From an uncultured Planctomycetales bacterium (GTDB lineage: Bacteria; Omnitrophota; Gorgyraeia; Zapsychrales; JANLHA01): a DNA stretch of 64,000 nt. Below are positions 24,800 to 45,854 of the stretch, piece by piece. Position numbers and translations under genes: made by a program. The notes under the pieces are model-generated. The model did no database searches. It had not been told where the DNA came from and worked only from the letters and a program-made list of their open reading frames with translations. Positions within the stretch are counted from its first letter, which is position 1. Each line of letters opens with the position of its first letter. The DNA is taken from assembly GCA_964595465.1 (NCBI GenBank), contig CAZQQI010000007.1:3930-67929 (forward strand). The letters run 5' to 3'.

Positions 24800-24833
24800 T
24801 GCGTACCGGGTGATACAGGGGTAACATAAGCAT

Positions 24834-26039: not shown

Positions 26040-26232
26040 AAAAAATGTTATATTTATTTAATTATCTTTCGGAGTAAAAATACAGCGGATAATGTGCTGA
26101 ATCATTTAAGGGAGGGCGGACTGACAAATGGTACCAATATGATCGATTATGACCTCTCAGCCTGCAGCACTTGGAATAGAACATGAAAAAATAGCGATAA
26201 CAACGATAACGAAAAAAATAAGGAGCAAGAAA

Positions 26233-26559
26233 ATGAAAAAGATGAATACACAAGGGTTTTCATTGGTAGAGGTCCTGGTCGTTTTAGCGATCATCGGAGC
26301 GTTGGTCGCGATGATCCTGCCGAACGCTTTTCGCGCTATGAATCAGTCTGACAGCACCCGTTCAACTGCTTCGGACCGTGCTGTCGAGGCGGCTTACGCG
26401 GCCTGCCGTCTGGATAACAACACCGATCATACAGCTTGTGATACCGCAGCTGAATTAGCACCGTACGTTGACGGGACCATTCCGAATTCGTGTACGATTA
26501 CAGGGGTTGATCAGGACGGCGACGGTACGGATGACAGCATAAACGTCACCGGATGTTAA
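26233..26559 (+). CDS. Type IV major pilin / pseudopilin with a class III signal peptide.
   Basis: The leader MKKMNTQG precedes the mature FSLVEVLVVLAIIG, with Glu at +5. A C-terminal disulfide loop lies between C...C. Start is taken at ATG 26233 with the RBS aaggagc. The long upstream ORF extension is rejected. Confidence 0.8.
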   Translation: MKKMNTQGFSLVEVLVVLAIIGALVAMILPNAFRAMNQSDSTRSTASDRAVEAAYAACRLDNNTDHTACDTAAELAPYVDGTIPNSCTITGVDQDGDGTDDSINVTGC

Positions 26560-26602
26560 ATTCCGTTTTGGTGCGTTTATCAGCGACTAAGGACGATCAT
26601 TT

Positions 26603-28120: not shown

Positions 28121-28742
28121 ATCGCGTATTATCATAGCCGCTGTTGTTTTGTGTCTTGCCTTTGCCGGCGTGTGTGTTTATATCGGCTGGCAAAGCTATC
28201 GATCCTTTTATCAACTGCAGGTGGATCGGCAGGCGCATGAGAATCGCATTGTCAAATTGAAAAAAGATATCCGCGAGATTAAATCTTTTATCAAACGGTA
28301 TAAGCGCGATAACGAAGAATTTCAGAAATTTTTATTCAAAGAAAAAGATGTCCCGGAATTCCTGGAGGGAGTCTCTCAGTTTGCCGGTAAGGCGGGAGTC
28401 GATATTATCGATATGAAAACTCAGAAGTTTGAAGAAGTCCGCTCCGCGTATGTGAAGCAGGCGCAGTCCCCTGTGGTCCAACGGCGAATGCGGAAGCGCG
28501 TCGGGGAGGACAGCCAAAAGCAGAGAATGGAGGAATTTACCCTGGCGGCTATGCCGGTCCACATTACGGTTAAGGGAGAGTTTGAAGCGTTCGTGTATTT
28601 TCTGAGTTATTTGGAAAAATTCAAACAATTGATCACGGTCAACGCTGTTGAGATCGCATCCGGTACGGATTACCCGGTTTTACGGTATTCGTTCACCGTG
28701 AAGATCTACAGCTTGAAGACTGTGGAAGATCTTATGGAATGA
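28107..28742 (+). CDS. PilO / GspM-like inner-membrane pilus alignment protein.
   Basis: An N-terminal TM helix, a coiled coil and a C-terminal ferredoxin-like region are present. The start overlaps the upstream gene. Confidence 0.5.
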   Translation: MSMNKSRIIIAAVVLCLAFAGVCVYIGWQSYRSFYQLQVDRQAHENRIVKLKKDIREIKSFIKRYKRDNEEFQKFLFKEKDVPEFLEGVSQFAGKAGVDIIDMKTQKFEEVRSAYVKQAQSPVVQRRMRKRVGEDSQKQRMEEFTLAAMPVHITVKGEFEAFVYFLSYLEKFKQLITVNAVEIASGTDYPVLRYSFTVKIYSLKTVEDLME

Positions 28743-28746
28743 TGAT

Positions 28747-29199
28747 ATGAAACGGAAATTTATTTTTATGATGATCGTTGTCCTGTTCGCAGGCTGCGGT
28801 TATATGGATGCGGGTGAGGACAGGCCTGCGGCATTAGAACAGGAAGACCAGCGCGTTGTTGAACGGATCGAAGATCCCCGGCTGGCCAAGCTGATTTTGA
28901 CGCCGAAAGAGTATAGGGTTGATATTTCCCGTGACCCTTTTAAGCCGCTGATCAGCCGTGAGAAAAATATGGAAAAAAAGAGTGACCCCCAGAGCGAGGC
29001 TATTGAACGGATGGAGTATTTAGGGAGTGTTCAATTCGGAGATGATGTTCAGGCCTTACTCAAGAGTCAAACTCAAACGGGTGTCTATCGTTCGGGCGAT
29101 GTGATCGGCCCATATACAATTGATTCTATTAAGGTGGATGAAATCCGGTTTTCTCATCGCGATTCCGGGGAAGCCGTTGTCTTAAAAAGGAGAGAATGA
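28747..29199 (+). CDS. PilP-like lipoprotein.
   Basis: A lipobox (FAGCG) and the conserved RDPF motif (SRDPFKPL) are present, followed by a C-terminal beta domain. Confidence 0.5.
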   Translation: MKRKFIFMMIVVLFAGCGYMDAGEDRPAALEQEDQRVVERIEDPRLAKLILTPKEYRVDISRDPFKPLISREKNMEKKSDPQSEAIERMEYLGSVQFGDDVQALLKSQTQTGVYRSGDVIGPYTIDSIKVDEIRFSHRDSGEAVVLKRRE

Positions 29200-29200
29200 T

Positions 29201-30805
29201 ATGTGTTATAAATTTAAGTGTTTGGTCATGATGGCCGTGATCAGTTTTATATGCCCGCCGGGAATGGCAGCAGCTCAGAATTTTGCTTCGACGGCTCAGG
29301 AGCAGAGTTCTGAATCCGGCGATGTGCTGGCTCAGCTGGAGAATATGGAGACGATGATCACGGAGCAGGAACAGCAGGTCGAGCAGCTGAAAACCCGGGA
29401 TATTCCTAAGGATGATGTCGCGCCAGCGGCTGTGGTGGAGCGGGAGATGAGTATGGAGGAACAGCAGGCTTATTGGCAGCAGGACGTTGCTGATCAGAGT
29501 ATTCCGGATATCAAGAAACGTCTCAGGATCGATGCGGCTTTTCGGGAGGCCAAGGAATTCATGAAGCAGGTCGACCAGGATTTGGAAAATGTTCCGCAGC
29601 GTGTCGAAAAAGACGTTATTTACGAAATTAAGACCCCGGAAGAGATCATTCGTGGTGTGATCCCGGAAGAGGTCGCCGGCCGTGAGATCGATCTGGATTT
29701 TGACGAGACCCCGCTGGAAGATGTTTTAATGACGTTAGGGGCCAGTGCCGAGGTGAATATCATGCTTGATCCGTCTTTACGCGGAAAAACGCTGGATCTT
29801 CATCTGAAATCTGTGACCGTTGAGCATGCTTTGCTGCTTATCGCCCAGCCGTTTGATCTGGGGTTTAAGCAGATCGGGAATTCCCTGCTGGTCACCGAAC
29901 GTCAAAAATTGCGGAATGAGACTCTTGAATCCAAGGTCTTCACCCTGCGCAATATCAGCGCGGACCAGGTCGAGATCCTGGTGCGGGATATGGTCGAGAC
30001 GGTCAATATTAGTCCGGACATTAACAGCCTTCTGGTCATGGGGTCTCCCCAGGAGATCCGCAAGGTCGAACGAATCATAAAAGAGGTCGATAAGCCTCAG
30101 CTGCAGGTTATTCTTGAGGCTAAGATCGTAGAGGTCGACAAGGGGGCGTTAAAACAATTGGGCGTGGATTGGTCAGATTCGATCTCGCTTTCGTATCAGG
30201 AAAGCGGCCGCCCCAATGAGTTTGATACGACAGAAGATGCCCCGGATAATCCCTTTAAGATCTTTCAGCTTTCACGCAGCGCTTTGCAGTTTGATACGGT
30301 CTTAAAAATGCTGGAGACGCAGGATAAGGCAAAAGTTTTGTCTAATCCTCGGGTGGCGACTATGAACGACCGTCAGGCGGAGATATTTGTCGGAGACCGC
30401 ATTCCGTATACGGTCACGACCGTGTCCGGGGGAGTCGCGACCACAGATGTCCGTTTTGAAGAGCCCGGGATCCGCTTGCAGATCACCCCTTCGATCATCG
30501 ACGAGGATTTTGTTGTCATTAAGGTCGAACCGGAAGTGAGTTACATTTTTTCATTCCGGGGAGATGCCGATGAATATCCCTGGACCAAAAAGCGCAGCGC
30601 GACGGCATATGTGAGGGTGAAGAACAATCAGCCGTTTGTCATGGGCGGACTGTTAAGCCAGCAGGATAAAGAGACGTTATACAAGGTGCCGTTTTTGGGA
30701 GATATTCCGCTCATCGGCAATTTGTTTAATTATGATGACAGAACCCTGGAAGATGTTGAATTGATCATTACCGTCGTTCCCAAGATCGTCCGGGGAGAAG
30801 AATAG
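29201..30805 (+). CDS. pilQ: Secretin (PilQ/GspD family) outer-membrane channel.
   Basis: It has a signal peptide and N-domains. The C-terminal secretin motif is VPFLGDIPLIGNLF...ELIITVVPKIV. Confidence 0.85.
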   Translation: MCYKFKCLVMMAVISFICPPGMAAAQNFASTAQEQSSESGDVLAQLENMETMITEQEQQVEQLKTRDIPKDDVAPAAVVEREMSMEEQQAYWQQDVADQSIPDIKKRLRIDAAFREAKEFMKQVDQDLENVPQRVEKDVIYEIKTPEEIIRGVIPEEVAGREIDLDFDETPLEDVLMTLGASAEVNIMLDPSLRGKTLDLHLKSVTVEHALLLIAQPFDLGFKQIGNSLLVTERQKLRNETLESKVFTLRNISADQVEILVRDMVETVNISPDINSLLVMGSPQEIRKVERIIKEVDKPQLQVILEAKIVEVDKGALKQLGVDWSDSISLSYQESGRPNEFDTTEDAPDNPFKIFQLSRSALQFDTVLKMLETQDKAKVLSNPRVATMNDRQAEIFVGDRIPYTVTTVSGGVATTDVRFEEPGIRLQITPSIIDEDFVVIKVEPEVSYIFSFRGDADEYPWTKKRSATAYVRVKNNQPFVMGGLLSQQDKETLYKVPFLGDIPLIGNLFNYDDRTLEDVELIITVVPKIVRGEE

Positions 30806-30876
30806 TATTTTTCCGATCCAGCAATATTCTTCAGGCCCCGTCAGCGATGGCGGGGTTTTTTCTTAAAGAGGAGATC

Positions 30877-33138
30877 ATGCGCAATTTTTCAAAGGAACAA
30901 GGGCGTCAGGGATTTTCGCTGGTCGATGTTTTGGTCGGGACAGTGATCCTGTTCACTGTGGCGGGGTTCGGGCTGACGGCCAGCCGGGCGTTACGGTATT
31001 CTCATGAGATCGCCCGGAACAATCTCACCGCCACAAATCTTCTTCAGCAAAGCCAGGAAGAACTGCGGTATGCCATTGGGATCGGGAACAATTATGATTC
31101 GATCCAAGCCTGTGATTTTCCGGCGCCGGGGGAAGACGCGGCCTGCGGATTAGAGGCCCATGATCCCGTTATTTTTCCGGGAATGGAGCGTCACTATGAG
31201 ATCGATTTTATTGCCGGCAGTACAGAGCTAAAAAAAGCTACGGTTTCTGTGCGCTGGCAGGGGGTAATGGGAAGTCCGCGCCAGGTTCAATCAGTGATGC
31301 TGCTGGCCCGTCCGCCGGATCCTTTGCCGGCGAATCTTTATGGTCTGGTGAGCAATGCTCTGACCGGCCGTCCAGTCCGCGGAGCGCGGATTGTCCTGAA
31401 TCATGAAAGACAGGATGTGGTGCCCCTTTCGAGTGTAACCAGTGCGGAAGAAGACGGTATCAATTATGATTTCAGTGATCCTTCGACCGGGATTTACCGG
31501 CTTGAGACAGGTTCCTGGAGCGTCGAAGTGACGCATCGGGATTATGAAACCTTCGGTCCGGTGAACATTGTGCCTCATTTGGTTAACAATGAGTCCCGTC
31601 GTTATGATATCGAACTTGATCCTAAGCCGCGCGCGTATCTGCGGGTTAACATTGTGGACTTGGCCGGAAGCCCTGTGACCCTGCATGATCGGGATACCAC
31701 GCTCAGGGCTTATCATGACGGAGGAATTTTAACAGATCATGCGTCTCAAAAATGTGAAGTGAGGGGAGGCGGATTGCGTTCTGTGGAGTGGGAGTTTACG
31801 GATGAGCAGATCTCCGGAGGAGAATTAGCTGTTACGGTGAACACTTCTGACGCTTATCAGTCTTTTTATGTGGGCGATTTTGACTGTGATTCATATGCCG
31901 GGACCAGCCTGTGTGCCGACGGGTGGTCGTCATCTTTTTCTGCCGGTCACAGCTGGAACGGAGGCGGGGACGGTGATACCGTCATCCTGCGTATCGGAGA
32001 AACCACAGAAGTGGATGTTCCTTTACGGCCTGTTCCGCAGGCTGTTGTTTACGGTCAGTTCACATTGTCCGGACAGCCATTAACGCGCAGCGCGGCTCTC
32101 TATATGAAGACCAGCAGGTGGGCTTCTATCCATAGTTACGCGTCGTCTCGCTGTGACCCCGCGCAGGGACATTTTCCTTGTAACGGGATACGCACTACGG
32201 CGACAGGGACCTACCGCCTGCCGGTCCCGGCTCTGCAGGAGTTTTTGCCGGATACCGCTACGCATCAGCTGCGTATTCAGGCCAGAGAGATCTGGGCGGA
32301 TGTCGAACAATGCTGTCAAACGGTCGAGCAGACCCGTCTTTATGATTCGTACCGTTATCTTGACGCAGATGGCGAGGGAAGCCGGTCTTTATTATCCGGA
32401 ACGATAGAACAATATAACACGGACAAGGTGCCTCCGCCGCCGTATGTCTGCGGCGATGTTGAAGGTGAGGTCTTTGATGATAAAACCGGTGATCCCATTG
32501 TCAGCGGGGCGGTTCAGCTTTCTTACGGGGGGCGAGAATCTACCGACGGATCCGGAGATTATGAATATGTCTGTCCGGACCCGATGTTTGATGAACAGGG
32601 TAACCAGACAGCCTTCCGCGTTAAAAAAGGGAATAACGCATTATATGCCTGGAAAGGCGGGTATTATTCTTATCGTATGCCGGGGAATCTTTGGTATGAC
32701 AGCGGATCGTCTTATTTATATGTGAAGGAAAATGAGCGGATCGATGCCGGGCGCATTGAACTGTGGCCGCGGGGATACGGCGACCTGAGAGTTACTGTTC
32801 TGGATGCCGATACGGCGGAGCCGTTAAACGGGATGACTGTGGATCTTTCGTATTACAGTAGTGCCGGTCCTGGTGATCCGTCAGCTTTGACAACGGATGA
32901 TGCCGGAAGCGTTCTGTTTTCGCGGGTTCTGGAGACCTGGCCGCCGGAGGATCTTCCGGAAACCGGATACAAGACCACGGTACGTCGGCACAGCGCGGCC
33001 GCGGAGGATCCGGCGGGAAGATATCTTCAGGTTAACCGCGATGCCCAAGACCGGCCGGTACCGTACCCGGTTTCTGTGATTGCGGACGGCCTGCAGACAC
33101 TGACAATACTTATGGAGGATACCGGTGGCGGGATGTGA
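30877..33138 (+). CDS. Very large (753 aa) prepilin-type protein: an N-terminal pseudopilin helix fused to a Cys-rich extracellular region. It is a candidate tip adhesin or minor pilin.
   Basis: The GFSLVDVLVGTVILFTV cleavage/methylation motif lies after a short leader. Start is chosen at ATG 30877. Downstream are more than 700 aa with many Cys and carboxypeptidase-regulatory-like beta repeats. Confidence 0.55.
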   Translation: MRNFSKEQGRQGFSLVDVLVGTVILFTVAGFGLTASRALRYSHEIARNNLTATNLLQQSQEELRYAIGIGNNYDSIQACDFPAPGEDAACGLEAHDPVIFPGMERHYEIDFIAGSTELKKATVSVRWQGVMGSPRQVQSVMLLARPPDPLPANLYGLVSNALTGRPVRGARIVLNHERQDVVPLSSVTSAEEDGINYDFSDPSTGIYRLETGSWSVEVTHRDYETFGPVNIVPHLVNNESRRYDIELDPKPRAYLRVNIVDLAGSPVTLHDRDTTLRAYHDGGILTDHASQKCEVRGGGLRSVEWEFTDEQISGGELAVTVNTSDAYQSFYVGDFDCDSYAGTSLCADGWSSSFSAGHSWNGGGDGDTVILRIGETTEVDVPLRPVPQAVVYGQFTLSGQPLTRSAALYMKTSRWASIHSYASSRCDPAQGHFPCNGIRTTATGTYRLPVPALQEFLPDTATHQLRIQAREIWADVEQCCQTVEQTRLYDSYRYLDADGEGSRSLLSGTIEQYNTDKVPPPPYVCGDVEGEVFDDKTGDPIVSGAVQLSYGGRESTDGSGDYEYVCPDPMFDEQGNQTAFRVKKGNNALYAWKGGYYSYRMPGNLWYDSGSSYLYVKENERIDAGRIELWPRGYGDLRVTVLDADTAEPLNGMTVDLSYYSSAGPGDPSALTTDDAGSVLFSRVLETWPPEDLPETGYKTTVRRHSAAAEDPAGRYLQVNRDAQDRPVPYPVSVIADGLQTLTILMEDTGGGM

Positions 33139-33628
33139 GCAGATAAAATGTTATGCGGGCAAGGACTTGCGTCGCGGCTATAGTTTGATCGAAATGATCG
33201 TATCGATGATGATCTTTTCTACTCTTGCTGTGGTCGGGGGGATGGTGTTTTTTAGCAATGTGGTCATGTTTGATAAGCGGATGTCCAGTGCAGATCTTTG
33301 GCAGGAGGCCAATGTCTTTATTGAAGCGGTCACTGAAGATGTCCGGGAGGCCTCCCGTGTGGATGTTCCCAGCGGTTCGGACGATGTATTAATCGGGTAT
33401 GACCGTGATGGAAATCAGGCGTTCCGTTATGAAATTGCTGATGACGGCAAGGTCCGCGCTCTCTCGGGACCCTGGGGCGGCACGGTCTTTACCCGGCGTG
33501 CCGATAGCAGTAAGAGCGGGTTTGAACATTACGGCAATATGATCGATGTGAGCATAACGCTTATTGATCCGTCTTTTGTTAAAGATATAGCGGTCGCGAC
33601 CGGGACACGCATTGTTCTGAGGAATTAA
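33125..33628 (+). CDS. Minor pseudopilin (GspJ/PilW-like).
   Basis: The prepilin motif RRGYSLIEMIVSMMIFS is present. The true start is probably an internal TTG or GTG near 33161, which would give the leader MRRG. Confidence 0.55.
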   Translation: MAGCEQIKCYAGKDLRRGYSLIEMIVSMMIFSTLAVVGGMVFFSNVVMFDKRMSSADLWQEANVFIEAVTEDVREASRVDVPSGSDDVLIGYDRDGNQAFRYEIADDGKVRALSGPWGGTVFTRRADSSKSGFEHYGNMIDVSITLIDPSFVKDIAVATGTRIVLRN

Positions 33629-35075: not shown

Positions 35076-35516
35076 ATGATCGGCAGTAATCTTAAAAAAT
35101 TTCGACAGCAGAAAGGTTTGACTCAAAAAGATCTGGCCGATATTTTGGGTGTTTCCCGTCAGGCGGTCTGTCTTTGGGAGGCAGGTAAGCGTGAAGTCCG
35201 TGTGGGTTTTTTAAGTCTGCTGGCCGATATCTTAGGGATTACGGTCGATGAATTGGTCCGCTGCGGATCGGCCACAGGTTTTCAGTACTTGTCTGTTTCT
35301 GCTGTAGAGGTTGGCCTGGTTGGGGATTTTAATCATTGGGCGAAACCGTTGCCCTTGAAAAATGAAGGGAACGGTCTTTGGCGCATCACGCTCGATCTTA
35401 AACCCGGACGCTATGAATATAAATTTTATGTCGACGGAGAATGGTGCCTCGATCCGGAAAACGGCCAGACAGTCAGCAATCGTTACGGAACACAAAATTC
35501 TGTTGTGACGGTTTAG
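35076..35516 (+). CDS. Fusion of an XRE-family HTH DNA-binding domain with a CBM48 / AMPK-beta-like glycogen-binding module.
   Basis: The N-terminal LKKFRQQKGLTQKDLADILGVSRQAVCLWE is a classic Cro/C1 HTH. The C-terminal GDFNHWAKPLPL...WRITLDLKPGRYEYKFYVDGEWCLDP is the CBM48/E-set starch-binding signature. Confidence 0.7.
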   Translation: MIGSNLKKFRQQKGLTQKDLADILGVSRQAVCLWEAGKREVRVGFLSLLADILGITVDELVRCGSATGFQYLSVSAVEVGLVGDFNHWAKPLPLKNEGNGLWRITLDLKPGRYEYKFYVDGEWCLDPENGQTVSNRYGTQNSVVTV

Positions 35517-35552: not shown

Positions 35553-36971
35553 ATGTTAAGCAGGGGACAAGAAAAGGAGAATACGGTGGCAGATAAAAAG
35601 AAAACGCCTAAAAAAACAACCAGGCAAACATCCGCTAAATCAAAGTCTAAAAAATCAGCCGTAAAAAAATCTCCGAAAAAGAAAACGGGTAAAAAGGCGG
35701 CGAAAAAGGCGGTAAAAAAATCCCCGCTCCAAAAGGGCGCGTCTGTAAAGAAGAAAACGGCAGTGAAAAAAAAGGGTTTATCCGCAAAAAAGAAAACCGT
35801 TGCGAAGAAAAAAAGCTTATCCGCAGAAAAGAAAACGACAGCGAAGAAAAAGAGCCCGGTTACCAATAAGAGGGTAAAGGGCATGATCCGTACCAACCTG
35901 GAGTATGCCTCCCGCGCCAAGCGTCCGGTCTTTATCGACAGCGAAGCCATGCCGGAAAGTTACGGCTCCACCAGTGTGGTCTTGATCGCGCGTGATCCCC
36001 GCTGGATCCATGCTTATTGGGAGATCGCCCCGTCCAGTATTGAAGAGGTCCGCGCGCGTTACGGAAAATCTGTCGACCGCGCTGTTAAAGTCCTGCGCAT
36101 GTATGACGTGACCATGATCAATTTTGACGGCCGTAATGCCAATCATATTTTTGATATTGAGGTGGGGGACGCTAATAATTGGTATGTGAATTTGCCTAAT
36201 GATCATGTCTCCTATTGCGCGGACATCGGCTTATTGACCCCGGAGAGTGATTTTTTTACGCTGGCCCGTTCGAATTTTGTGACGACCCCGCGTGCTCATG
36301 TGTCTCCCCGCAAAGAATTGGTCTGGATGGCTGTCGAGCCCGGGGCTGAACCAACGGCTTTTGTCTATGACGGAGAGGATCCCGCTCTGGAGACGGGTAA
36401 GACAAGTGTGCCTTCAGATGTCGTGATCGGCGAAGCGCATATCCGTGATTATTATTCACGGGTCTTTCCCTTGCTGCGCCGTGTCCTGATGCGGCATGCT
36501 TCTGAAGAAGGAGCCACAGCCCAAAGCGCGGTGGACGCTGCTTTGCAGTATATCGAAGACCAGGATATGATGGCCTATGATTATTTCCGCCGGATCCTGC
36601 TCGGAGCTTCTGAAGAAATGATGGAAAAGGGCCGTATGGGGGAAGAAGGTATCGGCGGAATTTCCAGTGAAGAATTGGCCCCTTCATCCTGGGGCGGGGC
36701 CTCGGAAGAGGGTGCACCAGGTCCGCAGAGCGGATTCTTTTTTGAGCTCGGTACGGAATTGATCGTTTATGGGCGGACCGAGCCTGACGCGAAAGTGGAG
36801 TGGGGTGGGAAACCGATCATGCTCCGAGAGGACGGGACCTTTACGCTAAGAATGGCCCTGCCCACGGATACGCATATTCCTCTGGATTTTACTGCTGTTA
36901 AGTATGATGGGCGGCATCGCCGTTCGATCAATACAGCCGCACAGCGGGACTCTACGGAATATAAAGAATAA
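35553..36971 (+). CDS. DUF4912-like protein with a long N-terminal histone-H1-like Lys/Ala-rich tail.
   Basis: The first ~110 aa are KKKT/AKKK repeats. The remainder carries a DPRWIHAYWEI-type motif that I associate with DUF4912 proteins found next to GH57 genes. Confidence 0.45.
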   Translation: MLSRGQEKENTVADKKKTPKKTTRQTSAKSKSKKSAVKKSPKKKTGKKAAKKAVKKSPLQKGASVKKKTAVKKKGLSAKKKTVAKKKSLSAEKKTTAKKKSPVTNKRVKGMIRTNLEYASRAKRPVFIDSEAMPESYGSTSVVLIARDPRWIHAYWEIAPSSIEEVRARYGKSVDRAVKVLRMYDVTMINFDGRNANHIFDIEVGDANNWYVNLPNDHVSYCADIGLLTPESDFFTLARSNFVTTPRAHVSPRKELVWMAVEPGAEPTAFVYDGEDPALETGKTSVPSDVVIGEAHIRDYYSRVFPLLRRVLMRHASEEGATAQSAVDAALQYIEDQDMMAYDYFRRILLGASEEMMEKGRMGEEGIGGISSEELAPSSWGGASEEGAPGPQSGFFFELGTELIVYGRTEPDAKVEWGGKPIMLREDGTFTLRMALPTDTHIPLDFTAVKYDGRHRRSINTAAQRDSTEYKE

Positions 36972-37003: not shown

Positions 37004-38638
37004 GTGGTCTTATTTGAATATGTTAGGAGCAGTATGGCCCAGGGTTATCTTTCATTGGTTCTGCACGCGCACCTGCCTTTTGTCCGGCATCCGGAAGAAG
37101 AGTATTTCCTTGAAGAGAACTGGCTGTATGAGGCGATCACCGAGACCTACCTGCCTTTGCTGATGACGCTGGAACAGCTGGTCCGGGACGGGGTGTATTT
37201 CCGTCTGACTTTGTCGCTTAGTCCTACATTGGTCAGCATGTTGAGGGACCCTTTTTTACAAGAGCGGTATATCCTTCATTTGGACCGCATGATCGAACTG
37301 GCCGGCCGGGAGATCGAACGGACCGGTTTCGATGCCCGGTATCATGGATTAGCCCTGATGTATCATCGTCGTTTTGTTGATTTTCGTCATATGTTCTGCG
37401 AGACCTATCAGCGGGACCTGGTCGGTGCGTTCAAATACTTTCAGGATACGGGCTGTTTGGAGATCATGACCAGCTGTGCGACACATGGATTCCTGCCGAT
37501 TTTGGCCGTTAATCCGCGGGCAGCTGAGGCCCAGATCCGTATCGGTGTCGACTCGTATACAGAAGTATTCGGACGTCCGCCGCGCGGGATCTGGCTGCCG
37601 GAATGCGGCTTTGTCCCGGGCATCGACACGATGCTTAAGCGGGTCGGGATCAGATATTTCATAGTGGATTCCCACGGTCTGATGTATTCAGATCCGCGCC
37701 CTAAATATGGGATCTTTGCGCCGGTCTATACACCTGCGGGGGTTGCTGCTTTCGGCCGGGATTGGGAATCGTCCAAACAGGTTTGGAGTGCCAAAGAGGG
37801 ATATCCCGGGGATCCGGCCTATCGCGAATATTATCGGGATATCGGCCATGAACTGGAATATGAATACGTCAGGCCGTATATTGATCCGGCCGGCACCCGT
37901 GTCAATACCGGTCTGAAGTATTGGCGGGTAACGGGGCAGACCGCGGCCAAAGAGCCTTACCGTCCGGATATTGCCAGGGAAAAGGCGGCGGAGCACGCCG
38001 CGGATTTCATCGCCCGGCGGCAGTCTCAGGTAAGGGATCTTCATAATAGAATGCACCGTGATCCGATCATTGTCGCGCCTTACGATGCTGAACTTTACGG
38101 CCATTGGTGGTATGAAGGGCCTGTTTTTATGGATTTTCTTTTTCGTAAACTGGCTTTTGATCAGTCACTGATCCGTCCCGCGACGCCGACAGAATATCTT
38201 ACGGCTTACCGTGTGAACCAAATGGCCATGCCGTCATCTTCCAGCTGGGGTTATAAAGGTTACAGTGAGTATTGGCTGGATAAAAGCAACGACTGGATCT
38301 ACCGGCATATCCATAAGGCAGCTGAACGTATGCAGGAGCTGGCCGTTAAATTCAGCACAGAGATACAGAATCCCAAGGATTCTGTGACAAAGCGGGCACT
38401 TAATCAGGCGGCACGGGAACTTTTGTTGGCTGAATCCAGCGATTGGCCCTTTATTATGCGGACCGGGACGATGGTGGCATATGCCCAACGCAGGATCCGT
38501 CTGCATATTTCCCGGTTTACCCGTTTATATGATGATTTGCTGGAGAAAAACATATCGGAAGAATGGTTGACAGAAATCGAAGAACGCGATAATCTCTTTT
38601 CTGATATGGAATGTGCCCGTTATTATCTCCCTGAATGA
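37004..38638 (+). CDS. GH57 family alpha-glucan enzyme, probably a 1,4-alpha-glucan branching enzyme (DUF1957-containing).
   Basis: GH57 signatures are present: LVLHAHLPF near the N-terminus, a GIWLPECGF nucleophile region and a C-terminal helical DUF1957-like region. Confidence 0.8.
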   Translation: MVLFEYVRSSMAQGYLSLVLHAHLPFVRHPEEEYFLEENWLYEAITETYLPLLMTLEQLVRDGVYFRLTLSLSPTLVSMLRDPFLQERYILHLDRMIELAGREIERTGFDARYHGLALMYHRRFVDFRHMFCETYQRDLVGAFKYFQDTGCLEIMTSCATHGFLPILAVNPRAAEAQIRIGVDSYTEVFGRPPRGIWLPECGFVPGIDTMLKRVGIRYFIVDSHGLMYSDPRPKYGIFAPVYTPAGVAAFGRDWESSKQVWSAKEGYPGDPAYREYYRDIGHELEYEYVRPYIDPAGTRVNTGLKYWRVTGQTAAKEPYRPDIAREKAAEHAADFIARRQSQVRDLHNRMHRDPIIVAPYDAELYGHWWYEGPVFMDFLFRKLAFDQSLIRPATPTEYLTAYRVNQMAMPSSSSWGYKGYSEYWLDKSNDWIYRHIHKAAERMQELAVKFSTEIQNPKDSVTKRALNQAARELLLAESSDWPFIMRTGTMVAYAQRRIRLHISRFTRLYDDLLEKNISEEWLTEIEERDNLFSDMECARYYLPE

Positions 38639-38811: not shown

Positions 38812-39459
38812 ATGGTCTGCTTAAAAGAATCGCCCCTGCGGATAGAACGTGTTTGTTTTACGGATAATGACCGCATGCGTCATCTTTATCGGCTCCGTTT
38901 GAAAGTTTATGGCGAGCAATGTGGTTTTTTTAATATTGATGAGTATCCTGAAGGCGAAGAGCGGGATAAATATGATGCCCAATCCGCGCATTTTCTGATC
39001 CGCGACGGGTTAAGCCGGAAAATCCTGATCGCTGCCCGTCTGATCTTACCCGGAGCACATCGTCTGCCGGTTTTTGATCATGTTCCTGAATTGTACCGTC
39101 AGTATGCTTCCTGCACGAAGGCCTGTGCCGAGATTTCCCGATTTGTCTTAAATAAATCTGCTTATTTTGATTATCAAAAACGCAGAGCGGCGGCTTTGGG
39201 GGGCGTCCCTACACTTGCGGTCTATCGTGAGATGTTCTCCATTCTCTATGCCCAGTTGTATCAGCGGGCGGTTGAATCGGGTATTCAGCATGGTTTTGCT
39301 CTGATGGAGAAGGGTCTTTACCGTTTGGCCAAATTGCAGGGGTTCTCTTTTGCGCCGGTCGGAGAGACCATTGATGTTTACGGCCCGGTCAAGCCGTATT
39401 ATCTTGAAGTCGCGTCTTTGGGCTATCTCCAGCAATATGCTGCCGCGCAGAACAATTGA
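38812..39459 (+). CDS. GNAT-fold N-acyltransferase of the LuxI / N-acyl amino acid synthase-like family, possibly of the exosortase-associated acyltransferase type.
   Basis: The 215-aa size, the HFLIRDGLSRKILIAARL core and the single-domain architecture fit. It lies 46 bp upstream of the giant gene on the same strand. An operator-like palindrome sits at 38705-38722. Confidence 0.4.
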   Translation: MVCLKESPLRIERVCFTDNDRMRHLYRLRLKVYGEQCGFFNIDEYPEGEERDKYDAQSAHFLIRDGLSRKILIAARLILPGAHRLPVFDHVPELYRQYASCTKACAEISRFVLNKSAYFDYQKRRAAALGGVPTLAVYREMFSILYAQLYQRAVESGIQHGFALMEKGLYRLAKLQGFSFAPVGETIDVYGPVKPYYLEVASLGYLQQYAAAQNN

Positions 39460-39505: not shown

Positions 39506-42500
39506 ATGACAGAAGCGCATCGGCACAAGCATCCTCTGCTTAAATTTATATCGCTCGTTCTCGCAACAGTCTTTTTAACCACCACAATTCTTCCGCCTCG
39601 GTTGGCCCGGGCGCAGGTCCTGCCGACCCTGCCGGTCCCCGGAACCCTTTTGAGCACCTCACAGGGGTATGTTCCGCTTTTGCTCAAGGGGATCCAGGTT
39701 GACCCGCAGAATCCGCTGTCCTTCAACTTTATTATGAATACCGGTGAACTGCGCGCCGATACCGATGGCCTGCGTGAAGAGATGCAGCGCCAGATCAAAT
39801 ATTTTCTGGCTTCGCTGACCGTGCCCGAGGCAGAGATGTGGGTCAACCTGTCGCCTTATGAAGGCGACCGTATCATCCCGGATGCCTTCGGGCAGACCGA
39901 GATGGGCATGGACCTGCTGGCCCAGGATTATCTGCTGAAACAGCTGACCGCCAGCCTGATGTATCCTGAAGAAGAACTGGGACAGGCCTTTTGGAAACGC
40001 GTGTATCAGCGGGCCGAAAAAGAGTTCGGGACGCGGGATATTCCGGTGGATACCTACAACAAGGTCTGGATCGTGCCTGAAGACGCCACGGTCTTTCAGA
40101 AAGACGGCAGTGCTTATGTGATCGAGAGCAGTCTGAAGGTCATGCTGGAAGAGGATTATGTGGCCAAGATGGAAGGCCGCCAGGTCAGCCGCAGCAGCAG
40201 TGTTCAGGATATTGATGCTCAGATCATCCGTGAAGTGATTATTCCTGAAATTGAACGGGAAGTCAATGAAGGGCAGACCTTTGCTAAACTGCGGCAGATC
40301 TATCAGGCCATGATCCTCGCGACCTGGTATAAGATCAACCTGCGGGAGACTTTGCTCGGCCGGATCTATGTGGACCGCAATAAAGTCGCCGGGGTTGACA
40401 CCGCAGACAAACAGCTCAAAGAAAAAATTTATCAGCAGTATATAGACGCCTTTAAAAAAGGTGTCTACAACTATATTAAGGAAGAGCAAGATCCGGTATC
40501 CGGTCAGATCATCCCGCGGAAATATTTTTCCGGCGGGTTTACGACAGATGAAGCCCTGCTGACTACTGTGCAGGGCAGCCTGATCGACGGGAATGGCGGA
40601 TTGGCGCCTTATCAGCAGGAGCAAATCGTAACATCCTTGGGCACATTCGCCGCCGGGAGCCGTACCATTGCGGTCGATGTTAACCTGGTTGAAGATCCCG
40701 CAGCTAAAGGATGGTCGCAGGTCGTCACGGCCGAGACCTTCAGCCGAGATGCCCAGGGTCTTGTCCGCGCGGATGCCGCCATGCTGACAGAAAACAGCAA
40801 GGATTATTTGCGAGACAATAATCCGGAGCTTCTGCACAATGTTGATAACGGTAATTTTTCGCCCGAGCAGGTCGAGGCAATTAATATTATGGTCGACATC
40901 GGTAATGCCGGTATACTCAAAGAGAGTTCTAACGTTGGAGGGCTGTTAGACCAAGTGGCCCGACGGGATAAGACCTATCCGACCGGGCTCCGAGGATATC
41001 ATGCAAATGCTGCTAGAAAGATGAAAATTTTTTATGAGGGCGGCAATCCCATGGCCGATGTCATCAAGATCAGTGCCCCTGCGACAAAAGATCTTACGTC
41101 GGCAGATTCTGAAACTCTTAATGTGCTGAATCGTGAAGGTTTAAAGGTTGTTAATAAAACAGTCTTTGTCATGCCAGCCGGGGGGCTGGGGGAACGGCTT
41201 GGCTATGGCGGATTAAAGTTGGATCTGCCGCTGGATTCGCTTACTCGGAAATCGTATTTGCAGATGTATGCAGAAAATATCCTGGCGCTACAAGAAAGGT
41301 CAAATAATTTAAATGGAGAAGATGAACGCATTCCTTTGGTGATGATGACCTCGGCAGACAATCATCAGCGGACCCTGGATTTTATTCAGAAAAACAATCT
41401 GTTCGGCATGGATGGGCTGACGGTTATTGATGTGACCAAGGATATTGCGGTCTATGATGCTGGCGCGGGAAAGGTCGTGGTTGCGGATCGCAGGGCATAT
41501 GAAGATCGTAATGAGATCGTTAACCCCCGTGATATCGGTCAAATGGTGATCTTTCAGCAGGATTCTGTTTTTGCTTTTACAGGAGAGGATGCTAAGTTTG
41601 TTCTGCAGGAAGATGGTCTTATTAAAGAAAAACCTCATAATCATGGAGATATCGAACTGCTTTTACATCTTTCCGGTGTGGCTAAAGCCTTTGAACAGGC
41701 CGGCAAGAAGCAGAGCCTCTTTTTCCAGGATACTAACGGAGAGGCCTTTAATGCGGTCCTGCCCGGATTGGGGGCATCGGTTACAGAAGGATACAAGGTA
41801 AATTTATTGGCCGTCGAACGCAAGCCCGGGGATGCTGTTGGAGCCATTGCCGAGATGACCCTTGAAAATGGGACGACACAGGTCGGGAATATCGAATATA
41901 ACGATGTGCCGAATGTCGCCAAAAATTATGGTCTTCCAGAAGAAAATTTTTCTTCAGGGAATATCAACATCTTTATTGTTAACCAGCAGGCATTGGCCGC
42001 TGCACTGGATGAAACTAATGGTTTAATGCCGGAGATTGTTAACCCCAAGCCGGATACCGGAGAAGCTCGCTTAGAAGCCATGATGCAGGATATCGCCAAA
42101 GCTGTTCCCGGTTCTCAGGTAGGGGTCACGTCATTCCCGGTAAGAATGATCTTTGCCGCCACCAAAAATGCTTTACCCCGGGCCTTGAGTAAGGTTGAAA
42201 AGGGCAATTTCCCCGAGCACCTGGCTGCGACTGAAGGCGTTTATCATATGAACACGCGGGAGATGTTGGCCCGGGCTGGTGTTGAGATTAATCCAGAAGG
42301 GAATACGAGGTACGCATTTGAGGATCTTTTACAACCCGCCTTTGGGCTTGAATCAGAAGTTCCCGGTATTCCTTATCAGGACGGAGCGCGGATATCTCTT
42401 TCCCCGTTTTTTGCTCAGTCTGTTGAAGACATTCAGCAAAAGATGAAGGGCGTCAGCATCAGCGACCGGTCTTTTGTGGTGATTGAAGGGGAACGTGTTT

Positions 42501-44527
42501 TCTTGAAAGATGTCAAGATCGATGGTGCTGTCGATATCCGGACCAATCCCGCTCAGACTCTTGTCCTCGAAAATCTCACGATAGAGAATGCCGGCTGGGA
42601 GTTTGTGCCTTTGACCGCCGAGGAAGTTTTGGATGAGCGAGGGCTGCCGGAAGATATCCGCATGAGAGGATATAAGCTGGTTAAACGCGATCAATTTTCA
42701 GTAGACATTACAGATCAAGGCCCTGGTGTGTACACGGTTGATACGGAAGGAAATGTCCGCCGGGCTGATCCGGCTGTGCTGACAGAAGTGCTGGATCCGT
42801 CAGAAGCTATCCGCCTCATTACAGAAAGTGCTGATCCCGGTTTTCTTGAATTTCTGCTCGACTATGCCCGTCATGACGGGCATGTTGAACAGCGTCAGAT
42901 CGACCCGCAGATATTAGCGCGGCAATTACGGGAGACCGGTCTGGCCGATGCCGGATCTGAACAGGATCGGGCTATTCAGCAGGGGATTCCCCGGTTAGGA
43001 GAATTGCGTGAGGCACGGGACCCGCGCGGGTATCGGATCTTAAGCGAGATGGCCGGCCGGGAGTTGTTCGCCGATCGTGATTTTCAGAGACAGATCCTGT
43101 CCGAGATCCGGCAGGGGAGGGTTACGTTCGCTTTATTGAAGCCCGACACCATTGGGTTAGGAGAAGAAGAACGGATGCTGGCGGCCTTGGAATCAGCGGA
43201 CTTTGAGGTTATTGAAGGCCCCCATATCCGTTTGTCGGAGGCTGAGGCGGAAGAGCTTTATCAGGAGCATAAAGGACAACGTTATTTTTCTGCTTTGATC
43301 GATTTTATGACCGGAACCGGAGAGTACGCCGGTCGGGAGCAGAGCGTGGTCCCGCTGTTTTTAAAAACGGCGGCTCAACGTGCCGAGACCGCGGCTCAGC
43401 TTTTTGAGAGAAACCGGAATATCTTGCGCGGAATTATTCCGCACTATGATCAGGATTTGGCTAAACGCGAAAATCGTATCCACGGTTCTGACAGCATCAA
43501 TAGCGCTGAACGCGAGGCCGGGCTGATCTTTAAGATGTTCCCGGAGAGAGAGGGTGTCGGGAAACCGGTGCTTTCATCCTCTTCGGATGTTATGAGTACG
43601 AGCGATGAGCAGGGAGAATTTGTTGCTCTGGAAAGTAGTGGAATATTTCGGACATCCCTGAAAGACGGACAGCATGTCCTTATTGATGTCACGGACTCCC
43701 GGTATGATATTGCTAAGACATTTCATGTGGCCAGGCAAGGCGGCCGGATCATGATCGATGGGGAAATTAAGAGACAATATACTGATGAGCGTGATCGTGA
43801 CGTCATGATTTTACCGGTCATTGATGATGCAGCAGCAGAGGGTCCTTTGCTGAGTATCGTTGTTGCCCAAAATGAGGGGGATCTGGAGGTGACGCACAAT
43901 CTTTCCGGACCCGGCAGCTCGGTCAAGATCCGCAATGTCGATGCGGCGCAATTGAGCCGTTCAGAGAGCGAGCAGGATCAGCAGTATGCCCTGGAGTTGC
44001 TGCAGAATCGGCTGTCCCTGCTCCAGCAGGAAGTTCGGAATATGGAAGCTGAGATCAAATCCATTCAAACTCAGCAGGCGCGTTTTCGAGATAATTCTGT
44101 TCAATGGAACCGCCGGCATAATCGGATGCAGGACTTAAGAGAACAGCTGAATAGAAAACGTGCGGAGATCGCTCAAACAGAGCAGCAAATACGCAGGGTA
44201 ACGGATCAAGCGGGCCCCGTTATGACGGCCCGCCAAGATGATGATAGAGTGGGTGGTATTGATCTGAACAGCGCGCATCTGAACCTCAAGATCGAACGCG
44301 ATGACCGCGGCGTGCCTCTGCCGATGGATCAGCAGCCCATGCCGGAGCTTATGAACATAGACGGGTTTTTGCCGGTGATCATTAATGTGACGCCTATCCA
44401 GAGCGTCCCGATGCTGTTGGGCCTGGAGGATTCTCCGGCTGATCAGCGGCAGACCGGGACAGAATCCGTGCCGGGTGAGCAGCCCCGTGCGCGTTTGGAA
44501 AAAGCGGTTATAGAGGCCGCCATTTAG
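39506..44527 (+). CDS. Giant (1673 aa) multi-domain protein. In order: an N-terminal signal anchor, an unknown domain of ~500 aa, a UDP-sugar pyrophosphorylase (UDPGP/USP)-like domain, a nucleoside diphosphate kinase domain, a coiled coil and a C-terminal tail.
   Basis: The ORF is uninterrupted. The N-terminus is positively charged (HRHKH) before a TM helix. A UDPGP motif (MPAGGLGERLGYGG, about 41171) and a pyrophosphorylase signature (KPHNHGDIELL) are followed by a beta-helix-like region. The NDK domain (about 43118-43540) reads RVTFALLKPD...YQEHKGQRYF...NRIHGSDSINSAEREAGLIF, compared with NDK ERTFxIIKPD...NxxHGSDSVESAxREIxxFF. A coiled coil lies at about 43980-44200. Confidence 0.75.
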   Translation: MTEAHRHKHPLLKFISLVLATVFLTTTILPPRLARAQVLPTLPVPGTLLSTSQGYVPLLLKGIQVDPQNPLSFNFIMNTGELRADTDGLREEMQRQIKYFLASLTVPEAEMWVNLSPYEGDRIIPDAFGQTEMGMDLLAQDYLLKQLTASLMYPEEELGQAFWKRVYQRAEKEFGTRDIPVDTYNKVWIVPEDATVFQKDGSAYVIESSLKVMLEEDYVAKMEGRQVSRSSSVQDIDAQIIREVIIPEIEREVNEGQTFAKLRQIYQAMILATWYKINLRETLLGRIYVDRNKVAGVDTADKQLKEKIYQQYIDAFKKGVYNYIKEEQDPVSGQIIPRKYFSGGFTTDEALLTTVQGSLIDGNGGLAPYQQEQIVTSLGTFAAGSRTIAVDVNLVEDPAAKGWSQVVTAETFSRDAQGLVRADAAMLTENSKDYLRDNNPELLHNVDNGNFSPEQVEAINIMVDIGNAGILKESSNVGGLLDQVARRDKTYPTGLRGYHANAARKMKIFYEGGNPMADVIKISAPATKDLTSADSETLNVLNREGLKVVNKTVFVMPAGGLGERLGYGGLKLDLPLDSLTRKSYLQMYAENILALQERSNNLNGEDERIPLVMMTSADNHQRTLDFIQKNNLFGMDGLTVIDVTKDIAVYDAGAGKVVVADRRAYEDRNEIVNPRDIGQMVIFQQDSVFAFTGEDAKFVLQEDGLIKEKPHNHGDIELLLHLSGVAKAFEQAGKKQSLFFQDTNGEAFNAVLPGLGASVTEGYKVNLLAVERKPGDAVGAIAEMTLENGTTQVGNIEYNDVPNVAKNYGLPEENFSSGNINIFIVNQQALAAALDETNGLMPEIVNPKPDTGEARLEAMMQDIAKAVPGSQVGVTSFPVRMIFAATKNALPRALSKVEKGNFPEHLAATEGVYHMNTREMLARAGVEINPEGNTRYAFEDLLQPAFGLESEVPGIPYQDGARISLSPFFAQSVEDIQQKMKGVSISDRSFVVIEGERVFLKDVKIDGAVDIRTNPAQTLVLENLTIENAGWEFVPLTAEEVLDERGLPEDIRMRGYKLVKRDQFSVDITDQGPGVYTVDTEGNVRRADPAVLTEVLDPSEAIRLITESADPGFLEFLLDYARHDGHVEQRQIDPQILARQLRETGLADAGSEQDRAIQQGIPRLGELREARDPRGYRILSEMAGRELFADRDFQRQILSEIRQGRVTFALLKPDTIGLGEEERMLAALESADFEVIEGPHIRLSEAEAEELYQEHKGQRYFSALIDFMTGTGEYAGREQSVVPLFLKTAAQRAETAAQLFERNRNILRGIIPHYDQDLAKRENRIHGSDSINSAEREAGLIFKMFPEREGVGKPVLSSSSDVMSTSDEQGEFVALESSGIFRTSLKDGQHVLIDVTDSRYDIAKTFHVARQGGRIMIDGEIKRQYTDERDRDVMILPVIDDAAAEGPLLSIVVAQNEGDLEVTHNLSGPGSSVKIRNVDAAQLSRSESEQDQQYALELLQNRLSLLQQEVRNMEAEIKSIQTQQARFRDNSVQWNRRHNRMQDLREQLNRKRAEIAQTEQQIRRVTDQAGPVMTARQDDDRVGGIDLNSAHLNLKIERDDRGVPLPMDQQPMPELMNIDGFLPVIINVTPIQSVPMLLGLEDSPADQRQTGTESVPGEQPRARLEKAVIEAAI

Positions 44528-45464: not shown

Positions 45465-45854
45465 ATGAAAATGCCGACGATTTTCACCAAGATCATCAAT
45501 GGGGAAATTCCCTGTCATAAGATCGCCGAGGATGACAAGCATTTGGCGTTTCTGGATATACGCCCGATCCGGGAAGGACATACTCTGGTCATCCCCAAGA
45601 AAGAGGGGGACTACATCTTCGATATGAACGATCAGGATCTCTCTGATCTCATGGTTTTTGCCAAGGCCGTTGCCCGTAAAATTGAAGCCAAAATCACGTG
45701 CAAGCGTGTGGGCGTCATGGTCGCCGGGATTGAAGTTCCTCATACCCATGTGCATTTGATCCCTTTTGAAAAGATCCCGGATTTGAATTTCGCCAACGCC
45801 AAGGAGGTCCCGCAGGAGGAGTTGGCGCGGACCGCAGACAAGATCACCGGATAG
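45465..45854 (+). CDS. HIT-family nucleotide hydrolase (HinT-like).
   Basis: The histidine triad HTHVHLIP (HxHxHxx) is present. Confidence 0.85.
   Translation: MKMPTIFTKIINGEIPCHKIAEDDKHLAFLDIRPIREGHTLVIPKKEGDYIFDMNDQDLSDLMVFAKAVARKIEAKITCKRVGVMVAGIEVPHTHVHLIPFEKIPDLNFANAKEVPQEELARTADKITG

Follow-up and report, generated by a model that had tools for sequence, protein, structure and literature searches.

A Cys-free USP–NDK protein of an Omnitrophota genome and its very large family of putatively exported enzymes with conserved terminal modules

Very long, multi-enzyme proteins that bear a signal peptide or a transmembrane (TM) segment have been described from Omnitrophota in two preprints (West-Roberts et al. 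2023; Nielsen & Lui 2026), which treat proteins of at least 10 kAA (thousand amino acids) or the very largest genes, classed by Pfam content and DeepTMHMM class. Here we present the analysis of a gene on contig CAZQQI010000007.1 (GenBank assembly GCA_964595465.1, deposited as an uncultured Planctomycetales bacterium and placed in Omnitrophota by GTDB), which encodes a protein of 1673 amino acids (aa) with a UDP-sugar pyrophosphorylase (USP) and a nucleoside diphosphate kinase (NDK) domain. The window is the whole stretch of 64,000 nucleotides that was analysed (contig positions 3,930 to 67,929), and all positions refer to it. Together with its family, the USP–NDK protein shares with the Omnitrophota giants the phylum, several cargo Pfams (GT5 starch/glycogen synthase, phosphoglucomutase (PGM), receiver, HEAT, HD and GGDEF) and the presence of several enzymes of the same pathway on one polypeptide. 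More than 90% of the giants have an N-terminal signal peptide or TM segment, and type II secretion system (T2SS)-like loci lie near their genes; both traits have counterparts here. The USP–NDK protein is much shorter than these giants of at least 10 kAA. It belongs with the known Omnitrophota multi-enzyme long proteins. The family of terminal modules to which it also belongs is itself undescribed: in the portion of the Omnitrophota literature covered, we found no description of the pair of N- and C-modules, the size of the family, the arrangement with one module per end or the exclusion of cysteine (Cys).

Other described systems are comparable in parts. Type IX secretion system (T9SS) cargo (with a C-terminal sorting domain), TpsA proteins (with an N-terminal two-partner secretion (TPS) domain and an extended signal peptide) and RTX adhesins (with a retention module at the N-terminus and a signal at the C-terminus) also combine conserved terminal modules with interchangeable passengers. 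Like the family, such proteins are large and of acidic composition, contain few cysteines or none and begin with an unusually long signal peptide. Their passengers are adhesins, toxins and hydrolases, whereas those found here are metabolic and signalling enzymes, and the modules of our protein have no sequence or fold match to T9SS, ESPR (extended signal peptide region), TPS or RTX modules. Concerning the enzyme domains, nearly the whole chain of the solved USPs (EC 2.7.7.64; PF01704; 9uml, 3oh0) and all of their visible signature motifs are found in our USP domain [GGLGERLGY, KPH(N/G)HGD, FFQDTN, N(I/V)EYN, NPK and R(L/I)E(A/S)(M/L)MQD]. The NDK family (PF00334) is matched over the full length of the domain, including the catalytic His of NxIHGSDS; Lys, Tyr, Arg-Gly, Asn, Ser and Glu are likewise in place. 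The USPs of known structure occur as soluble proteins of ~600 aa that stand alone, and a typical NDK is a free chain of 140 aa which assembles into hexamers or tetramers; in contrast, the USP domain studied here is Cys-free and stands between family modules, behind a predicted signal peptide, and the NDK domain is fused within the 1673-aa protein.

The protein is not a one-off: by sequence and by architecture it almost certainly belongs to a family that comprises at least 8,355 clusters and has highly variable cargo. The order of parts predicted for the family is a long signal peptide, an N-module, variable enzyme cargo, often a helical stalk, a C-module and a short acidic tail; our protein has the N-module, one C-module and the near absence of cysteine that define it. 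In a whole-protein database search 3,615 significant matches were obtained among 8,000 candidates scored; the named ones are nearly all Candidatus Omnitrophota, and the USP domain is common to only about 20 of the matches. Most homologs (109 of 119) match our protein only at residues ~5–345 (50–63% identity) and ~1582–1642, and do so at their own extreme ends.

A profile of the N-module built from 36 sequences was compared, with no word index, with 1.84 billion cluster representatives (50% identity level). It matched 8,355 clusters at E ≤ 1e-3 and 6,715 at E ≤ 1e-30; in all 150 matches listed the N-module starts at or near residue 1 (≤64), and the proteins are 420–5312 aa long. At least 598 loci were confirmed by tblastn in reference genomes (one genome per species). 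The best 80 of these at least 598 loci all lie in metagenome-assembled genomes (MAGs) labelled Omnitrophota, ‘uncultured Planctomycetales’ or ‘bacterium’, and single MAGs give 5–7 of them. The family is a very large paralogous set: all genome loci examined belong to Omnitrophota MAGs, in which the copies are many. Within the 64-kb window, tblastn with the N-module, the C-module and the middle part found no paralog, only the gene itself; ordinary enzymes without N- or C-modules are also encoded there. On another contig (JAGOSC010000005.1, 2062–25184) three members stand in tandem (2640 aa, 1727 aa and >3472 aa); their cargo (HpcH/MaoC/ADH; two acyl-CoA dehydrogenases; acyl-CoA synthetase/ACAD/B12-dependent mutase) resembles an acyl-CoA/propionate-type pathway.

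The N-module has a length of ~310 aa and the hallmarks LPxPG, WVNLSPYE, DLLAQDYxLKQL, NKVWIVP, EKEVNEG and RKYFSGG. The C-module has ~60 aa and the consensus VGGIDLNPxxLxLQIKRDGxGVPLPxxQQPxxxMxIxGFxPVIINxTPxxNLPxLLG, in which the GGI, G and P positions are invariant. A single C-module near the C-terminus is found in 112 of 120 members and in 197 of the 231 members fetched, and no protein among the 231 has more than one. The two modules are closely coupled: among 72 proteins of at least 1000 aa, retrieved by the N-module profile alone, 69 have exactly one C-module, which ends ≤77 aa from the C-terminus. A C-module profile run against a large protein database found only fragments of ≤109 aa, too short to judge the coupling with the N-module. 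Two ‘stand-alone’ C-modules on long contigs turned out to be, in one case, a family gene (2176 aa) split in two at a 4-nt overlap and, in the other, part of an error-fragmented contig at 2x coverage, and short ‘minimal’ members (608–655 aa) are contig-truncated fragments with neither a C-module nor Pfam cargo. The split gene (JACRHP010000079.1, 151–6920) encodes FBPase and PGM, and its own C-module is an 80-aa open reading frame (ORF) in 4-nt overlap; the split could stem from a frameshift or from an error in sequencing, or possibly from programmed recoding.

Neither module could be assigned to a known group. Pfam and NCBIfam gave no relevant match for the two ends of the protein (residues 1–480 and the C-terminal part) at E up to 10, the C-module profile had no match in the PDB at E ≤ 10, and no relative of the N-module or C-module is found in the PDB. 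The remark in the preliminary description that no described family has this architecture is therefore correct, since Pfam and NCBIfam have nothing for the ends. Its ‘~500 aa of unrecognised sequence’ and ‘C-terminal tail’ correspond to the N- and C-modules which define the family. The AlphaFold2 (AF2) model of residues 1–400, based on the 36-sequence alignment, has a predicted template modelling score (pTM) of 0.62 and a predicted local distance difference test score (pLDDT) of 64.7 (70–86 in the core, residues 55–280); in it an N-terminal helix (residues 10–28) leads into an alpha/beta domain, which itself contains two long beta-hairpins and six or seven helices. The model of residues 1344–1673 has three parts: an all-beta domain (~1380–1478), a helical hairpin (~1487–1568, pLDDT 84–92) and the C-module. 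The hairpin is the 80-aa coiled coil proposed earlier, now modelled with confidence. The GGIDLN...GVPLP half of the C-module is confident but irregular, and its hydrophobic half is of low confidence. The all-beta domain has no Pfam match and no homolog among the fetched members. A homology search with residues 1097–1470 (linker, NDK and beta domain) gave no match and missed even the protein's own cluster, which is probably an artefact of candidate selection.

Similarity between modules follows lineage and not cargo. The most similar N-module (63% identity) is that of P0020, which carries PGM as cargo and shares the ‘PRARLE’ tail element with our protein, whereas the USP orthologs P0003–P0006 are only 41–51% identical. 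Such a pattern of identities would suit concerted evolution, or co-evolution with a partner that is particular to the lineage. The N- and C-modules would be common handling modules, acting in sorting, anchoring or assembly after export.

The cargo between the modules varies widely. Enzymes of carbohydrate metabolism include PGM, GT5 glycogen synthase, glycogen phosphorylase, FBPase, PGI, PGK, TIM, enolase, aldolase-type enzymes and isocitrate lyase/malate synthase; other members carry acyl-CoA dehydrogenases, CofD, NAPRTase, receiver, GGDEF, cyclic nucleotide (cNMP)-binding and helix-turn-helix (HTH) domains, HEAT repeats or acyl carrier protein (ACP). The enzymes of glycogen and UDP-glucose dominate the family cargo. 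By predicted domain content, cargo that is coherent in pathway yet variable is the general rule in the family.

In our protein, residues ~433–1077 are assigned by sequence similarity to the USP/UDPGP superfamily, as had been proposed. The Pfam family UDPGP (PF01704) is matched with E = 7e-7 and 28.7 bits (cutoff 22). In the PDB, phmmer finds MbUSP (9uml/9umk, E = 2.6e-76), the USP of Leishmania major (3oh0, E = 5.8e-34) and 8tg2 (E = 2.5e-33); a literature search for ‘MbUSP’ found no paper. The alignment with 9uml joins residues 480–636 and 679–1062 (span 480–1062) to chain residues 48–585 of 600, and covers the beta-helix-type C-terminal domain that follows the catalytic core. The motifs GGLGERLGY (559–567), KPHNHGD (709–715, with one G changed to N), FFQDTNG (739–745) and VNPKP (845–849), and also NIEYN and RLEAMMQD, align with their counterparts in MbUSP and LmUSP. 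The domain is very likely to be active.

The NDK domain, with its catalytic His, was likewise recovered. It matches PF00334 with E = 1.7e-15 and 57.5 bits (cutoff 27) over profile positions 3–131 of 135, and NDKs in the PDB with a best E of 4.8e-12; the K, Y, R-G, N, H, S and E positions are kept. The catalytic His lies in NRIHGSDS (1323–1330) and the Lys in LLKPD (1210–1214), and ELYQEH, ILRG and AEREA align to the matching residues of 3vvu. The segment between alpha-3 and ILRG, aligned to the Kpn loop, is divergent and aligns poorly with the solved NDKs. This divergence, together with the missed NCBIfam equivalog cutoffs described below, indicates an NDK-fold domain of a divergent subtype and not the housekeeping enzyme. 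We take the domain to be atypical and probably active.

USPs catalyse the reversible reaction of sugar-1-phosphate and UTP to UDP-sugar and pyrophosphate (PPi), and NDKs transfer phosphate from NTP to UDP, reversibly and through a phospho-histidine, giving NDP and UTP. The two domains together would form a self-contained unit for the synthesis of UDP-sugars with regeneration of UTP; in reverse, the unit would convert UDP-sugars to sugar-1-phosphate and NTP. Their pairing is sporadic. Only two of the 20 USP-carrying members among the 231 fetched also have an NDK domain, our protein and P0004, and the order is USP then NDK in the former and reversed in the latter (NDK 496–613, USP 633–1267). P0082 has an NDK domain alongside other sequence without assigned cargo, and in other members the partners of USP are PGM, PGI, transaldolase and phosphorylase. 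Co-occurrence of NDK and USP is hence not a conserved feature. That the pairing arose in two different orders fits a functional link through UTP regeneration, but this falls short of a conserved architecture. The channelled nucleotide-sugar factory envisaged in the preliminary description is plausible for this one cargo; as a conserved design it is not established.

Concerning localisation, the N-terminus has a basic n-region (HRHKH...K), an h-region of ~17–19 residues, PP and LARA|Q. The same design is seen in the organism's secretin (VISFICPPGMAAA|QNF; FICPPGMAAA|QNF), porin (ALTARA|AEI) and PstS. Across the family the net charge of the n-region is +3 on average, 91 of 116 LPxPG-bearing members have a small-x-small site ahead of LPxPG, and the signal peptides share a conserved F-x-Y-R-[IL]-L-S element; their predicted median length is 38 aa, against 24–25 aa for the Sec substrates of the window. 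The cut is probably made at ARA|Q, judging from these patterns. The basic N-terminus and hydrophobic helix noted earlier are thus present; a signal peptide, long and probably cleavable, is a better interpretation of them than a TM helix. No second hydrophobic segment occurs after the N-terminus until the C-module; in the lack of a returning segment, and by the positive-inside rule, everything after residue ~30 would therefore lie outside.

There is also a clear difference in Cys content. Our protein has no Cys among 1673 residues (0 of 1637 in the predicted mature part). The mature exported proteins of the window have one Cys in 1178 residues (0.085%), whereas 14 soluble cytoplasmic enzymes have 88 in 6444 (1.37%); by Fisher's test the mature part differs from the cytoplasmic enzymes (p = 3.5e-9) and not from the exported proteins (p = 0.42). 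Pooled over the 231 members Cys makes up 0.08% of residues, or 0.04% beyond residue 45, where 145 members have none. It is the sole depleted residue: the ratio of cargo to other proteins is 0.03 for Cys and 0.68–1.44 for the other residues. The rare cysteines that survive are in CxxC or CxxxCxxC clusters. Exclusion of Cys from exported proteins has been documented where bacteria do not depend on forming disulfides (PMC2823432). Taken together, the signal-peptide design, the charged n-region without a returning segment and the exclusion of Cys are three independent lines which make export fairly likely. The Sec system would thread the polypeptide across the cytoplasmic membrane, the signal peptide would be cut at ARA|Q, and the USP–NDK enzymes would act within the envelope, on the cell surface or where the cell meets a host or prey.

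Known sorting signals gave no match. A Tat (twin-arginine) signal is not indicated, as RR occurs in only 12 of 210 n-regions (YR or YK in 96 of 210) and our protein has none of these. The C-module has no Pfam or NCBIfam match to the T9SS C-terminal sorting domain (PF18962/TIGR04183) and lacks a beta-sandwich in the AF2 model; the sole PF18962 match is internal, in P0029 (residues 1068–1139 of 1502). For ESPR (PF13018) and TPS, Pfam gave nothing relevant at E ≤ 10 with eight family N-termini and residues 1–480 of our protein, and the N-module is alpha/beta in the AF2 model and not a beta-helix, unlike the TPS domain. There is no NCBIfam match to a sortase, exosortase or rhombosortase signal; the C-terminus has a hydrophobic stretch with three prolines, followed by an acidic tail of 0–48 aa.

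The neighbourhood points to glycogen-type metabolism. Directly upstream of the gene are found a small HTH-CBM48 gene (~35076–35516), a DUF4912 gene (35553–36971), a GH57 branching enzyme with BE_C (37004–38638) and a GNAT gene (38812–39459). The closest ortholog, P0002 (54% identity), has the same upstream set together with a GT5 glycogen synthase and a GH94 gene. This neighbourhood suggests a role in glycogen-type glucan metabolism, and we regard the link to alpha-glucan metabolism as an evenly balanced call. Such metabolism is normally cytoplasmic. A complete cluster resembling a T2SS or type IV pilus (T4P) system lies at 23135–33628, 6–16 kb upstream of the USP–NDK gene (Table 1).

Our favoured reading, to which we give a probability of roughly 0.6, is that the protein is an exported member of the Omnitrophota family, with USP–NDK as its cargo, common handling modules at its ends and a likely part in alpha-glucan metabolism. 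Several observations weigh against it. Cleavage and export are deduced from sequence patterns only, and the h-region, with ~17–19 residues, is long enough for an uncleaved anchor. USP and NDK need UTP, ATP and sugar phosphates, none of which is supplied by a normal periplasm or exterior, and other cargo of the family (receiver, GGDEF, cNMP-binding and HTH domains, acyl-CoA and B12 enzymes) is also typically cytoplasmic. The GH57 branching enzyme of the syntenic set lacks a signal peptide, which points to a cytoplasmic pathway, and the glycogen synteny is seen only in the closest ortholog and is not kept in P0003 and P0004. The NDK domain misses all cutoffs of the NCBIfam housekeeping-NDK equivalogs (best 53.4 bits against cutoffs of 155–255), and because of this and the divergent Kpn-loop region its activity is not certain. 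The N-module model is of moderate confidence and gives no functional clue. The position of the catalytic domains outside the cytoplasm, raised in the preliminary description, is thus favoured by the signal peptide, the charged n-region and the Cys exclusion, and conflicts with the NTP-dependent cargo. Candidate resolutions of this conflict are an extracytoplasmic or host-facing metabolism, delivery via the nearby T2SS/T4P-like system or a non-standard use of the hydrophobic N-terminus.

Two other accounts start from the needs of the cargo. The protein could be part of a membrane-tethered metabolon, in which the N-terminus only anchors or targets the chain and cargo on the cytoplasmic face feeds UDP-glucose to the glycogen enzymes. 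This would suit the dependence of the cargo on NTPs and sugar phosphates, the GH57 neighbour without a signal peptide, the HTH-CBM48 product of the other syntenic gene and the receiver, GGDEF, cNMP-binding, HTH and ACP domains among the family cargo; the Nielsen & Lui 2026 preprint also reads TM-only Omnitrophota giants as facing the cytoplasm. However, a basic n-region with a neutral C-flank predicts the N-in/C-out orientation, the organism's secretin ends its signal peptide with the same AxA|Q pattern, the chain has no second hydrophobic segment for a return across the membrane, and the >20-fold depletion of Cys fits the organism's exported and not its cytoplasmic proteins; we hold a cytoplasmic location of this kind to be unlikely. 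The same cargo would be sensible outside the producing cell only where NTPs exist, that is, in the cytoplasm of another cell. A more specific version of export accordingly supposes that the modules guide the protein through the outer membrane by a dedicated route and on to a host or prey cell, at its surface or in its interior, where USP–NDK would act on host nucleotides and sugar phosphates. Every export signature applies to it equally; among the Omnitrophota there are ultra-small epibiotic predators as well as forms that depend on a host (PMC10066038), RNA of a predator has been observed within dead prey cells (PMC13153191), and the secretin-bearing T2SS/T4P-type cluster lies 6–16 kb upstream, as such loci are reported near the genes of Omnitrophota giants. 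No test here ties a delivery machinery to the modules, though, the T9SS C-terminal domain, ESPR, Tat and sortase-type signals are all negative, and dozens of effectors of 1–5 kAA per small genome would be costly, so that delivery of this kind is also improbable.

The two remaining alternatives concern the integrity of the chain. Short motifs recur at module boundaries: D-x-A-[MV]-x was observed 264 times against 43 expected from shuffles (120 members), a ~6-fold enrichment, and an unbiased 4-mer count of the cargo regions is topped by words of the SSSP[VI] and DAAM/AMLT types, which appear to be lineage-specific alternatives. Variants seen at the boundaries are D-x-A-M-L-T, S-S-S-P-[VI] and T-N-A-A-V-L. 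In our protein one such motif comes just before the USP domain (residue 423) and another just behind it (residue 1088), with a weaker third at 1479 after the beta domain; orthologs have an equivalent motif at the same two USP boundaries. A motif stands ≤30 aa before the C-module in 41 of 127 cases and ≤40 aa after the N-module in 48 of 130. The motifs may be polyprotein processing sites, docking elements or structural linkers. As processing sites they would yield N-module, USP, NDK-containing and C-terminal pieces, in either localisation; the enrichment, the rank of the words (with SSSP[VI]) in the 4-mer count and the places of the motif around USP, and often next to the N-module end or C-module start, agree with this, and for giant Omnitrophota proteins it has been suggested that their peptidase domains cleave them. 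The motif could equally be a linker or docking element, its flanks are not conserved and no protease is linked to it, so we rate processing as distinctly improbable.

A chimeric assembly or gene-calling artefact, joining separate USP and NDK genes, can be given almost no weight. Most USP-carrying members do lack NDK, and the closest ortholog, P0002, ends at a contig edge right after USP and gives no view of the C-terminal part. However, as claimed in the preliminary description, the ORF listing has one ORF only at this place; it starts with ATG. The motifs quoted there (HRHKH...LLKFISLVLATVFLTTTILPP at residues 5–31, GGLGERLGY, PxxHGD as KPHNHGD, and NRIHGSDS) are all present in the order given. 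A Shine–Dalgarno sequence (AAGGA) stands 6 nt before the ATG and is preceded by a 46-nt AT-rich spacer; the GC content is even across the gene and in-frame stops are absent. In an independent Logan assembly of SRR11308339 the 1673-aa product is encoded without any change on a contig of 20 kb, next to the same genes, and an assembly chimera is therefore very unlikely. Nineteen other family members have the N-module and USP within one ORF, P0004 has NDK and USP on one ORF, and the N-module at one end with the C-module at the other is the arrangement of 96% of full-length members. The chimera which the preliminary description had named as a possible objection is thus not supported.

Table 1. Positions of the parts of the USP–NDK gene and of the T2SS/T4P-like cluster in the window
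Feature	Position	Strand	Basis or remark
Complete ORF, 1673 aa + stop	39506..44527	+	ORF listing; identical product in independent assembly
Predicted signal peptide, long Sec-type, residues 1–36	39506..39613	+	Basic n-region, h-region LLKFISLVLATVFLTTTIL, PP helix break, c-region LARA|Q
N-module, residues 37–345	39614..40540	+	Conserved alpha/beta domain of the family
Variable linker, residues 346–422	40541..40771	+	Low AF2 confidence; similarity to most members stops at ~345
Junction motif DAAML, residues 423–427 (context GLVRADAAMLTEN)	40772..40786	+	Directly before USP domain
USP domain, residues 433–1077	40802..42736	+	phmmer against PDB, Pfam PF01704, motifs
Junction motif DPAVL, residues 1088–1092 (context GNVRRADPAVLTEV)	42767..42781	+	Directly after USP domain
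Linker, probably helical, residues 1097–1199	42794..43102	+	No Pfam match, no homolog among 231 members
NDK domain, residues 1207–1343	43124..43534	+	Pfam PF00334, PDB NDK alignment
All-beta domain, residues 1380–1478	43643..43939	+	AF2: eight strands, pLDDT 60–70
Weak third junction motif DAAQL, residues 1479–1483 (context RNVDAAQLSRSE)	43940..43954	+	Position 4 off main motif
Antiparallel helical hairpin (coiled-coil stalk), residues 1487–1568	43964..44209	+	Leads into C-module; AF2
C-module, residues 1581–1642, RVGGIDLNSAHLNLKIERDDRGVPLPMDQQPMPELMNIDGFLPVIINVTPIQSVPMLLGLED	44246..44431	+	One copy near C-terminus in most members
Variable acidic tail, residues 1643–1673	44432..44524	+	Family tail length 0–48 aa, D/E-rich
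GspE/PilB	23135–24799		
GspF/PilC	24834–26039		
PilN-domain protein	26603–28120		
Secretin	29201–30805		
763-aa protein	30847–33138		Prepilin-like N-terminus (…GFSLVDVLVG…)
Small N_methyl pseudopilin	~33125–33628		

Other genes of the window were also noted. A HIT-family gene (nucleotide hydrolase/transferase; 45465–45854) follows ~0.9 kb downstream of the USP–NDK gene, after a CvpA-like membrane protein, and a link with nucleotide sugars is possible. A 489-aa ORF (11407–12876) combines phosphoribulokinase/uridine-kinase and DHDPS-family domains, an unusual fusion without N- or C-modules. Antisense ORFs of up to 392 aa inside the gene, such as 39659–40837 (−), are probably shadow ORFs. Nearly all credible genes of the window are on the + strand, and the GC skew is positive throughout. 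With regard to the giants, the membrane-span calls in section 9 of Nielsen & Lui 2026 might instead be hydrophobic beta segments or C-module-like junctions.

At the level of the phylum, a broader proposal can be made only tentatively and is on balance doubtful: a sorting system common to Omnitrophota would export sets of Cys-free ‘cytoplasmic’ enzymes, marked by a long signal peptide, the ~310-aa N-module and the ~60-aa C-module, so that a part of metabolism would take place in the envelope, on the surface or in a host or prey. The exported sets would comprise glycogen and UDP-sugar synthesis, glycolysis, acyl-CoA metabolism and second-messenger signalling, with USP–NDK as the nucleotide-sugar unit. 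If export is true, dozens of genes per Omnitrophota genome that are annotated as cytoplasmic central metabolism lie outside the cytoplasm, the metabolic reconstructions of this widespread, uncultured and host-dependent phylum would need revision, and an extracytoplasmic or host-directed metabolism of this kind would have little precedent. Even if the cargo is cytoplasmic, the two terminal modules mark out a family that ranks among the larger uncharacterised ones of metagenomes (8,355 clusters or more at 50% identity), with a strict architecture and a >20-fold avoidance of Cys that calls for an explanation. ‘Long multi-enzyme proteins’ can now be described by defined features: a predicted cleavage site, two modules, junction motifs and Cys exclusion. 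The main value of the gene is that it exposes a very large, sharply defined family which combines an export signature with a functional paradox.

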